From a virus: a stretch of DNA of 5,940 bases. The notes beneath the pieces are model-generated. The model was not told the DNA's origin. It ran no database searches and saw nothing but the letters and a program-made list of their open reading frames with translations. Of this stretch, positions 1,858-3,485 are shown piece after piece. A program made the translations under genes and the position numbers. The stretch is from positions 1 to 5,940 of the IMG/VR virus record IMGVR_UViG_3300020030_000116; one strand, 5' to 3'. Position 1 is the first letter of the stretch; each line of letters opens with the position of its first letter.

Positions 1858-2451
1858 TTAAAGATGACTACCGCCGAGGGGAACTGTTTTTGTGCCTTTG
1901 GGACGACCTTTTCGGCCGCCGCGACGGCGAGATCGCTTCACGAACGCGATCGGTAAGAATAGTGCTAAACATTTTTCCCCAAAGATGCGACATATAGGCC
2001 TCGACGAATATTGCGGAACCGTCGCCAAAGAGAAGGGGGTCAGTGTGGTAAAAGAAGTTAACTTCGTGATGCTGGAAGGACTTAAGAATCTGCTGTAACT
2101 TGACCATCGAAAGGTTGGTAGGAGAAAATCGCCACTGCATACAACCATGGTCGGAAATATAGTCGTCACAGATTCGATAGAGTTCCCGAACACAGGTATA
2201 GACGGGAAGAATTTCGGGGTCGAATGAACTTGAAAGTTCGTCGAAAACTTTTCCTGACATTGGGCGAAAGTTTGAAAATTACGTGAACGGATTTTGAATT
2301 GGTATTCCACAGTGTCATGATGAACGCCACGGCGGAGAATAGAGCCAGCCGAGACGCACGACGTGAGGAAGAAAGCGGAGAAAGCAGCCACAATGGATGC
2401 AACCAAAGTCCAAAACTTTTTGGACTTCAGCAAAGCGGGACATTTAGACAT
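1858..2451 (-). CDS. Hypothetical 197-aa protein with a lipoprotein-type signal peptide at the N-terminus and a strongly basic C-terminal tail. The middle overlaps the 130-aa ORF.
   Basis: It is the first ATG ORF downstream of the candidate promoter. The N-terminus MSKCPALLKSKKFWTLVASIVAAFSAFFLTS|C has a Lys-rich n-region, a 15-aa hydrophobic core and the lipobox L-T-S-C (Cys32, nt 2356-2358). Phage-typical codons occur in the unique 5' part (2261-2451) and in the tail (KRSRRRGGRKGRPKGTKTVPLGGSHL). The S/T/P/F-rich middle looks overprinted. The frame stays open for 197 codons. Confidence 0.5.
   Translation of the reverse strand: MSKCPALLKSKKFWTLVASIVAAFSAFFLTSCVSAGSILRRGVHHDTVEYQFKIRSRNFQTFAQCQEKFSTNFQVHSTPKFFPSIPVFGNSIESVTTIFPTMVVCSGDFLLPTFRWSSYSRFLSPSSITKLTSFTTLTPFSLATVPQYSSRPICRIFGEKCLALFLPIAFVKRSRRRGGRKGRPKGTKTVPLGGSHL
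1868..2260 (-). CDS. Hypothetical 130-aa protein, nested inside ORF 1858..2451 in another frame
   Basis: The ATG-initiated ORF has a balanced, globular-looking composition (MSGKVFDELSSSFDPEILPVYTCVRELYRICDDYISDHG...). Codons in its central part match the phage preference (CGT/CGC, GGT/GGC, TCG/TCT). Its last 20 or so codons switch to rare CGG/AGG. I recognise no family. Confidence 0.6.
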   Translation of the reverse strand: MSGKVFDELSSSFDPEILPVYTCVRELYRICDDYISDHGCMQWRFSPTNLSMVKLQQILKSFQHHEVNFFYHTDPLLFGDGSAIFVEAYMSHLWGKMFSTILTDRVREAISPSRRPKRSSQRHKNSSPRR

Positions 2452-2510
2452 TGAACATAATTTGAATATGAAACTTTACAGATGTAATATAAAGTTCCGA
2501 TAATGACCAG

Positions 2511-2532
2511 TTTACAGCGTTAGAACTGTAAA
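2511..2532. repeat. AT-rich inverted repeat (hairpin) in the leader region
   Basis: tttacag (2511-2517), loop cgttagaa, then ctgtaaa (2526-2532), a 7-bp perfect stem. It lies between the candidate promoters and the first ATG at 2451. Confidence 0.5.
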
Positions 2533-2550
2533 TTTAACATAATGAATAGT

Positions 2551-2559
2551 ATTATATCA
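2551..2559 (-). promoter_or_regulatory. Candidate sigma70-type extended -10 element (TGATATAAT) on the gene strand
   Basis: The minus strand reads TGATATAAT, a perfect TGnTATAAT, about 90 nt upstream of the ATG at 2451. I found no convincing -35 element. Confidence 0.3.
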
Positions 2560-2636
2560 CCAAAATCGGAACAGTAGGAGAGGGAAACAAGAGGGGGCAA
2601 GACGTCAAAGAACGGAGGAAATAGCAGAAAACTGCA

Positions 2637-2669
2637 CAAATGTAAAAAACTTTTTTTTACAAATGCAAA
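2637..2669 (-). promoter_or_regulatory. Candidate Bacteroidota-type promoter (TTTG-N21-TACATTTG) driving the whole minus-strand gene set
   Basis: The minus strand has TTTG at 2669-2666, a 21-nt spacer, then TACATTTG at 2644-2637. This matches the Bacteroides -33 TTTG / -7 TAnnTTTG consensus. It sits in an AT-rich tract immediately upstream of the gene array. Confidence 0.4.
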
Positions 2670-2755
2670 TTTTTCGGGATATATTTTTCAGATTTCTTGC
2701 GACGCTGCACGAGCGGTCCGCCACAAGGGCGCGATGGTGATAGACACAGTAGGGT

Positions 2756-2780
2756 CGAGAGGGGACCCCGGCCAACCTCG
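2756..2780 (+). repeat. Direct repeat copy 1 (25 nt)
   Basis: cgagaggggaccccggccaacctcg. It matches copy 2 apart from one extra c in the C-run. Confidence 0.92.
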
Positions 2781-2814
2781 TACATCAGAGCATACGAGAT
2801 GCGTAGGTAGATTC

Positions 2815-2838
2815 CGAGAGGGGACCCGGCCAACCTCG
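2815..2838 (+). repeat. Direct repeat copy 2 (24 nt), 59 nt downstream of copy 1
   Basis: cgagaggggacccggccaacctcg. The 34-nt spacer 2781-2814 is unique sequence. Confidence 0.92.
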
Positions 2839-2918
2839 CAGACATGACCGGCAATCACGCGTACGCACACGAAGCGCGCGCGCACGCAGATAGCCGACAG
2901 ACCTGCAAGGCAATTTGT

Positions 2919-2934
2919 CCCGGTTCCCTCTCGG
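2919..2934 (-). repeat. Inverted partial copy of the 5' half of the direct repeat
   Basis: The reverse complement of cccggttccctctcgg is ccgagagggaaccggg, compared with ccgagaggggacccgg at 2814-2829. This allows 13 consecutive pairs (12 Watson-Crick plus one G-T/U) with either repeat copy. Confidence 0.7.
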
Positions 2935-3310
2935 GCTCTCCCTCCGAAAGGTATGCCTTCGGCATGATTTATTTGATATTTACTTTACAGCAAAAACCGA
3001 TATGGAGCCACGCCAGGGAGGGCGTTTCCACATCTGGCATATGTTGACGAGGGAGATGCCTTTTTGCAACCTATGCGCTTCGAAAGACGGTACTTTCGAG
3101 CGCGAGAACTGCGCGCCTAAACGGCCTGCGCGGTTTCGGGGCCTCGATCTCGCGTCCGCGATATCTTCGGCGCCGGAAACCATTACTCGGCCGTTCTTAA
3201 CGGCAGCGCGGATGTATATACTGGCAAAGCCAGTGAGTTTGTGGACAAAATGAACAGCAAAACGCGCGAGCTGTGCTCCGATCGGGACACAGCTGTGCAA
3301 TTTCAGAAGA

Positions 3311-3346
3311 CAAAACAAACAAAAACCCCGGTCTCAAAGGGCCGGG
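3311..3346 (-). terminator. Candidate intrinsic terminator closing the minus-strand transcription unit
   Basis: The minus strand has a stem cccgg (3346-3342) / ccggg (3331-3327) with a 10-nt loop, followed immediately by GTTTTTGTTTGTTTTG (3326-3311). It starts 8 nt after the stop of the last small ORF. The stem is only 5 GC pairs, so its strength is uncertain. Confidence 0.5.
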
Positions 3347-3353
3347 ATTCGAA

Positions 3354-3470
3354 TCAATGGCGGTTAAGCCAACGGATAATAGCGCGGATCAGAAACAGAA
3401 GCGGAACAAGAAAGAAAACCAAGATGGCTAAAACAATAATTTGGCCATAACCAATCACAAGAAATTGCAT
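3354..3470 (-). CDS. 38-aa single-pass membrane peptide (not in the supplied ORF track)
   Basis: The ATG at 3470 lies 15 nt after the VP2 stop. The product is MQFLVIGYGQIIVLAILVFFLVPLLFLIRAIIRWLNRH, ending at TGA 3356-3354. It has a hydrophobic core of about 25 aa followed by a basic C-terminus. Its codons (CGC, CGT, GGT, GGC, CTT, GTT) match the phage genes. The candidate terminator follows it directly. Confidence 0.45.
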   Translation of the reverse strand: MQFLVIGYGQIIVLAILVFFLVPLLFLIRAIIRWLNRH

Positions 3471-3485
3471 ACAACAAAAGTTTAG

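Follow-up and report, generated by a model that had tools for sequence, protein, structure and literature searches.

Two overlapping open frames with a hand-over of coding constraint in a microvirus of Alistipes

The locus and its genomic setting

The stretch of DNA analyzed here (the window) comprises the 5,940 nucleotides of IMG/VR record IMGVR_UViG_3300020030_000116, which represents a complete circular microvirus and has direct terminal repeats. All genes of the window were found on the minus strand (Table 1). The first-pass annotation had reported a long frame (frame B) that stays open across a complete shorter ORF in another frame (frame A). Both frames were present in the region claimed, on the minus strand, with B lying in the +1 frame of A. 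Searches of whole A, whole B, and the tail of B alone against Pfam and PHROGs returned no match, and scanning the window for Rfam families and tRNAs likewise gave nothing. A collection of annotated phages gave just two short, weak DNA matches, both to bajarodmic viruses.

Table 1. Genes of the 5,940-nt window and parts of frames A and B (positions in the window; codon and residue numbers refer to the respective frame).
Feature	Position	Strand	Description
VP1 capsid gene		minus	split across the window ends
126-aa acidic protein		minus	gene of the window
Pilot-like 374-aa protein		minus	gene of the window
ORF-poor block, ~1 kb	2452..3485	minus-strand gene order	precedes frames A and B; Rep lies after them
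Frame B, composite ORF	1858..2451	minus	197 codons + stop
B N-terminal module	2263..2451	minus	lipoprotein-type signal and conserved mature peptide of ~30 aa; B-phase purifying selection
B spacer, codons 64 to ~160	1972..2262	minus	overprinted on A; amino acids unconstrained, frame stop-free
B C-terminal module	1861..1971	minus	short hydrophobic stretch, Arg/Lys/Gly-rich run, invariant end of the type G-G-S-H-L
In-frame GTG just 5' of the basic run	1939..1941	minus	candidate internal start, 27-aa tail peptide
Frame A	1868..2260	minus	130 codons + stop; own ATG at 2258-2260
A constrained globular domain, residues 1 to ~100	1961..2260	minus	A-phase selection; AF2
A unconstrained C-terminal tail, residues ~101-130	1871..1960	minus	variation on A codon position 1; pLDDT <50

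The ORF-poor block immediately upstream of B is GC-rich. In close relatives, the same slot is occupied instead by an HTH_3 (PF01381) gene of 151-154 aa (for example, L084:595-1050, L086:290-754, and L001:1717-2172), and this part of the genome seems to be accessory and variable.

The genomic context of the relatives also gave information on the host. One relative (L170) is a provirus in the genome of the isolate Alistipes montrealensis kh20 (NZ_JAGYXY010000001.1:129986-133588) and carries the same A/B layout. Further integrated relatives, including L114 and L124, were found in Alistipes genomes and on contigs as long as 3 Mb. Because these relatives are integrated in Alistipes genomes and large contigs, the lineage is temperate or, at minimum, leaves proviruses. 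The host of the phage is Alistipes.

Conservation of the two frames and the chance of an open +1 frame

The presence of frame B in other microviruses was investigated at both the protein and the DNA level. Homologs of B numbered 278, with lengths of ~197-203 aa and identities down to 48%. The DNA of relatives was fetched using patterns located inside the N-terminal module of B, a selection that is independent of whether the middle of the frame is open. Distinct fused DNA copies numbered 43 and fell into ~10 deeply diverged clades. With the single exception of L087, B (192-205 aa) and A (118-138 aa) were both open in these copies and kept the same frame relationship; in each of the 43, several to a dozen stops were present in the third frame. 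Contigs in which the gene caller had picked A had B open as well. Stop codons in frame B of the relatives over the spacer, which the first-pass annotation had named as an observation that would speak against an overlap, were found in no lineage examined. Both frames are maintained: as in an overprinted pair, two same-strand frames are open in divergent relatives.

The exceptional copy, L087 (P0009), comes from a low-quality contig in which one indel swaps both frames and breaks Rep. Together with P0161, also from a low-quality contig, it gives rise to chimeric "proteins" in which a frame-B N-terminus is joined to a frame-A C-terminus as the result of a single indel.

When 1.84 billion cluster representatives were searched exhaustively with the N-terminal 65 aa of B as the query, 51 proteins with a bimodal length distribution were found. 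About 20 were stand-alone proteins, ending where the ~62-aa stand-alone gene ends. The long class comprised ~30 proteins of 180-223 aa that end in the tail motif, and it represents ~30 protein clusters below 50% identity in which B is open. Three of the 51 were anomalous, one having a chimeric end, one being truncated, and one showing a frame swap. No class broken in the middle of the spacer was found among the 51 representatives from this search.

The first-pass annotation had estimated the chance of such an open frame at 0.002. This value was far too small, since the +1 frame is stop-poor in this genome: the other genes of the window have 0.025 stops per codon in the +1 frame vs. 0.082 in the +2 frame. 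Under a null model in which codons for the protein sequence of A were resampled from the genome's own codon usage, the probability of an open +1 frame was 0.24 for the window; across lineages it ranged from 0.16 to 0.40, with 0.9-1.5 stops expected. Because the null probability is ~0.24, the openness of one sequence is not significant; the openness of B is significant solely across lineages. The product of the per-clade probabilities over the ~10 clades was ~5e-6, although the lineages may be less independent than this figure assumes. The +1 frame of Rep, used as a control, contained 5-14 stops across 11 lineages (0.029 stops per codon), and 0 of its 2043 windows of 130 codons were open. Stop-prone combinations were depleted in A's own codons relative to genome usage. 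Only 7 of the 178 possible A-synonymous changes create a stop in B, and a within-clade test, in which 1.0 stop-creating change was expected among 72 variants and 0 were seen (P = 0.36), had no power.

Constraint along the overlap and the protein modules

Codon-phase analysis, which measured mean pairwise differences per B codon position in 19 ungapped relatives (88-99% nucleotide identity), was used to locate constraint along the two frames. Over nt 1-189 of B, differences at B positions 1, 2, and 3 were.064,.024, and.189. Over nt 191-465, the corresponding values were.038,.197, and.057, with B position 2 being equivalent to A position 3, and over nt 481-591 they were about.015,.03, and.11-.15. 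The zone over which substitutions pile up on B position 2 extends from nt 191 to 480. Selection thus acts in three zones, namely B codons 1-63, A codons 1 to ~98, and the last 35-45 codons of B, and the order "B, then A, then B" previously suggested from codon preferences holds quantitatively. The hand-over from A to B was repeated in five other clades (six in total). In every clade, A-phase constraint ended at the last conserved motif of A and was followed by B-phase constraint over the last 35-45 codons.

Reduced synonymous variation, proposed earlier as a means of checking the overlap, was absent, as the wobble position of A varied at.197 vs..189 for the wobble position in the unique part of B. 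Because A wobble sites vary as they do in the unique part of B, the B spacer imposes on A just the avoidance of stops. The spacer part of the B alignment was poorly conserved, and S+T+P made up 37% of its composition. Judging from these substitution patterns, the middle of B appears to be conserved solely as an open frame, its amino acid sequence being irrelevant. The comparison with phiX174-type overprinting that accompanied the original observation therefore stands in part: two overlapping ORFs are maintained, but the arrangement is not classical dual coding, as one frame is constrained per nucleotide.

The N-terminal module of B contained a basic n-region (K3, K9, K11, K12), a hydrophobic h-region, and a lipobox L-T-S-C whose cysteine, Cys32 (2356-2358), was kept in nearly all of the 51 representatives. 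On these features, the N-terminus of B is a lipoprotein-type signal and a predicted signal peptidase II substrate. AF2 predicted a helix for residues 11-33 of B only, with the remainder at pLDDT <50 and predicted to be disordered. The N-terminal helix was TM-grade, with an average of 1.90 for the best 19-residue KD hydropathy. Elsewhere the module is an independent gene, found in most related ~6 kb microviruses with a length of 61-63 codons. This stand-alone gene usually lies just upstream of the pilot gene VP2 and in other cases adjoins unrelated small genes. It was observed in L008-L083 and L128-L153 (e.g., L013:1474-1665), carries a lipobox and the motif G-V-H-x-D-T-V, and has no family assignment. 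The widespread small lipoprotein is a candidate lysis or exclusion factor. A giant repeat protein, P0136 (3331 aa), contained ~20 copies of a lipopeptide-like motif, G-S-[IV]-L-R-R-x-V...T-V-x-F-K. Kinship between this protein and the lipopeptide was rejected, as the match is weak, involves a short strand-like motif, and may reflect a common beta-strand pattern.

The A family was coherent down to ~24% identity, and A was open in all relatives. Its stop position varied, lying 10, 31, or 49 nt before the B stop. The start codon was GTG rather than ATG in L119-L123, and L108 had no ATG at the aligned A start with the frame intact. AF2 modeled residues 11-100 of A with pLDDT values of 76-95 and an alpha-beta-beta-alpha-beta-beta-alpha topology; the tail was predicted to be disordered. 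This topology matches the LAGLIDADG type, with I-DmoI, an intein endonuclease domain, and WhiA-N recovered at Z 5-6, and a Foldseek search of A against the PDB gave nothing at an E of 0.001 or better. The modeled fold of A weakly resembles LAGLIDADG half-domains. A near-identical protein was present in a viral structure library, where it is listed as an uncharacterized Microviridae protein.

The C-terminal module of B was compared with the J/VP8 proteins, which are short and basic and whose final residues lie buried in a hydrophobic pocket of the capsid (PMC11281519). In the tail, K+R accounted for ~33% of the last 28 aa. A terminal L or F was conserved in the ~30 protein clusters, with the same type of ending retained below 50% identity. 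As in phiX174 J and SpV4 VP8 (PMC11281519), the tail is 28-45 aa long, is high in Arg/Lys/Gly, and ends in a conserved hydrophobic residue, and in sister genomes a similar peptide has a tiny ORF to itself. Unlike these proteins, the tail of the window lacks an ATG of its own and forms the last part of a 197-codon ORF starting with a lipoprotein signal. By its features alone, it resembles a J/VP8-like packaging module.

The sister genomes in question, L173 and L174, are complete and carry the stand-alone lipoprotein. Each contained a similar basic ORF of 24-28 codons with its own ATG; the one at L173:5966-6040 and its L174 counterpart span ~24 codons, are highly basic, and have a P-L-G-G ending. 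The small ORF overlaps only the last few codons of an upstream 107-aa gene, in the +1 frame, and this frame has stops further upstream. The 107-aa gene of L173 had no detectable relation to A. In that lineage, the small ORF probably encodes the packaging protein of the J/VP8 type. A BLASTP comparison of the B tail with it gave E = 0.94. A profile built from 63 tails placed the sister small ORFs in the best 4 of 562 six-frame segments (E = 0.02-0.2), with one spurious match scoring similarly. The tail profile gave no signal on phiX174 J, a negative that is not firm for peptides so short and composition-biased. Co-folding of VP1 with B residues 150-197 gave no answer (score 0.00), which counts neither for nor against binding.

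Readings of frame B

We consider it probable, with moderate confidence, that two real genes overlap at this locus and that coding constraint is handed over between them like a relay, with B being a composite of a lipoprotein and a J-like tail. In such an arrangement, A would be translated from its own ATG to give a globular protein of ~100 residues with a dispensable tail. Frame B would begin with the ATG of a small lipoprotein gene whose stop codon was lost, continue through A in its +1 frame as a ~95-codon spacer kept free of stops, and finish in the conserved basic module (35-45 residues), which has the DNA-packaging and capsid-binding features of J/VP8. In addition, initiation inside the frame could possibly yield the tail by itself, like A/A* of phiX174. 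Because the spacer is open in every lineage and comparable +1 frames gain stops, we infer that B is probably translated end to end as one polypeptide and that the fused product matters.

It is a more tentative suggestion, and one we hold with less than even confidence, that B may act as one bifunctional polypeptide, in which a periplasm-directed lipopeptide would be joined by a sequence-free linker, present just as an open frame over A, to a J-like module with capsid and DNA binding in the cytoplasm. Two points count against a fused B product in general. The tail need not derive from full-length B, as a start-type codon lies near the onset of its constraint, and a lipoprotein precursor that is exported would be an unexpected vehicle for a packaging peptide located in the cytoplasm.

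An alternative that we regard as unlikely, but the strongest of those considered, is that the locus yields three independent products, with the J-like peptide made from an internal start and the continuity of B a functionless run-on in a stop-poor +1 frame. The openness probability of 0.24 for a single sequence and the unconstrained, predicted disordered spacer are consistent with this. So are the start-type codons, one of which lies within a few codons of the onset of B-phase constraint in most clades: all 19 members of the window's clade have GTG at -28, two distant clades have ATG at -41, and many others carry TTG at -37/-38. In L007, as in the sister lineages, an ATG directly precedes the basic run. 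None of these starts is universal, however. The window has TTA at -37, and seven loci (L085, L086, L103, L105, and L108-L110) lack the GTG at -28 and have no start codon between -36 and -1. In the window's clade, B-phase constraint also reaches ~8 codons upstream of the GTG. Under a neutral run-on, 60-80% of lineages should carry stops, whereas B was open in ~10 of ~10 DNA clades and in ~30 protein clusters, with no intermediate lengths. The resemblance to phiX174 A/A*, in which a single ORF could likewise yield both a long and a short, C-terminal product (here B and the tail), is hypothetical for B, which has no start codon conserved across clades.

Less probable still is that B is a membrane protein for lysis or superinfection exclusion, comparable to a unimolecular spanin or to phiX174 E, with its function placed in the N-terminal lipid/TM anchor and its C-terminal end serving as a second, positive-inside anchor rather than as a packaging peptide. 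The lipobox with its nearly invariant Cys, the TM-grade N-terminal helix, the C-terminal hydrophobic stretch with a strongly basic cluster after it, and a genome with no recognizable lysis gene all point in this direction. Among known systems, the embedded spanin genes lambda Rz/Rz1 and the unimolecular spanin (u-spanin) T1 gp11 come close: here too, the gene for a phage lipoprotein overlaps a second gene in the +1 frame, and B shares with a u-spanin an N-terminal lipobox and a hydrophobic C-terminal region. In contrast to spanins, a C-terminal TM segment is not established in B: the best 19-residue hydropathy of the stretch before the tail averages 1.37 and reaches TM grade (>=1.6) in just 5/26 lineages. 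There is no holin/endolysin partner, A is without a TM segment, and in most relatives of the window phage the lipoprotein works as a lone, stand-alone 62-aa protein. The invariant C-terminus and the free-standing basic ORFs of 24-28 aa fit a J/VP8-type peptide better than an anchor.

A programmed +1 frameshift near the end of the A domain, which would fuse the globular domain of A to the tail of B and leave the openness of B upstream incidental, is very improbable. It would account for the switch of selection from A to B at about A codon 98 and for the unconstrained A tail with its variable stop position, and a prfB-like CTT-T context occurs near the switch in the window. The CTT-T, however, lies 5-8 codons before the switch, and B second positions vary over those codons, so it is not supported as a shift site by the constraint pattern. 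The always-open spacer would also be left unexplained, and sister genomes give the tail its own ATG. The possibility raised earlier that the layout is an assembly artefact, in which two compensating indels split one ordinary gene, found no support beyond the indel frame swaps in the two low-quality contigs noted above and can be considered excluded for practical purposes, as the identical architecture occurs in >40 independent assemblies, including the Alistipes isolate genome, and positions 1750-2550 differ between the contigs of independent studies by substitutions only, with no indels.

The preferred reading, an overlapping pair with a composite B, can be set against known microvirus overprinting. 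In phiX174, as here, a gene in another frame is nested inside a longer same-strand coding region (E in D, B in A). Both phiX174 E and phiX174 B tolerate much change outside one short functional end, which is the N-terminal TM segment in E and the C-terminal coat-binding end in phiX174 B. The present case differs in that the longer ORF is the one that overprints, being a composite of modules that are separate in relatives, and in that the shared nucleotides are without any dual amino acid constraint. No sequence relationship of A or B to phiX174 E, B, D, or A was found. To our knowledge, overprinting in microviruses, although a textbook case, is known almost only from phiX174-like phages. Overprinting is under-annotated outside phiX174 (PMC9865509), and the literature searched contained no earlier description of the B ORF, of a microvirus lipoprotein, or of an overlap kept just as an open frame.

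The locus adds a conserved example of overprinting from abundant gut microviruses of Bacteroidales. Its signature is unusual, as the overlapping stretch of one frame is selected just to stay open and joins modules that are separate in relatives. An overlap of this kind would escape scans for synonymous constraint such as synplot2 or FRESCo, whereas codon-phase and stop-avoidance tests detect it. The analysis also flags two unannotated classes of gut-microvirus genes, the widespread small lipoprotein and the J-like packaging peptide, and a cultivable host, Alistipes montrealensis, is available for testing the predictions. If B were bifunctional, it would couple assembly or packaging to the cell envelope, for instance in the timing of lysis or exclusion, and selection on frame continuity alone would represent a new use of overprinting.
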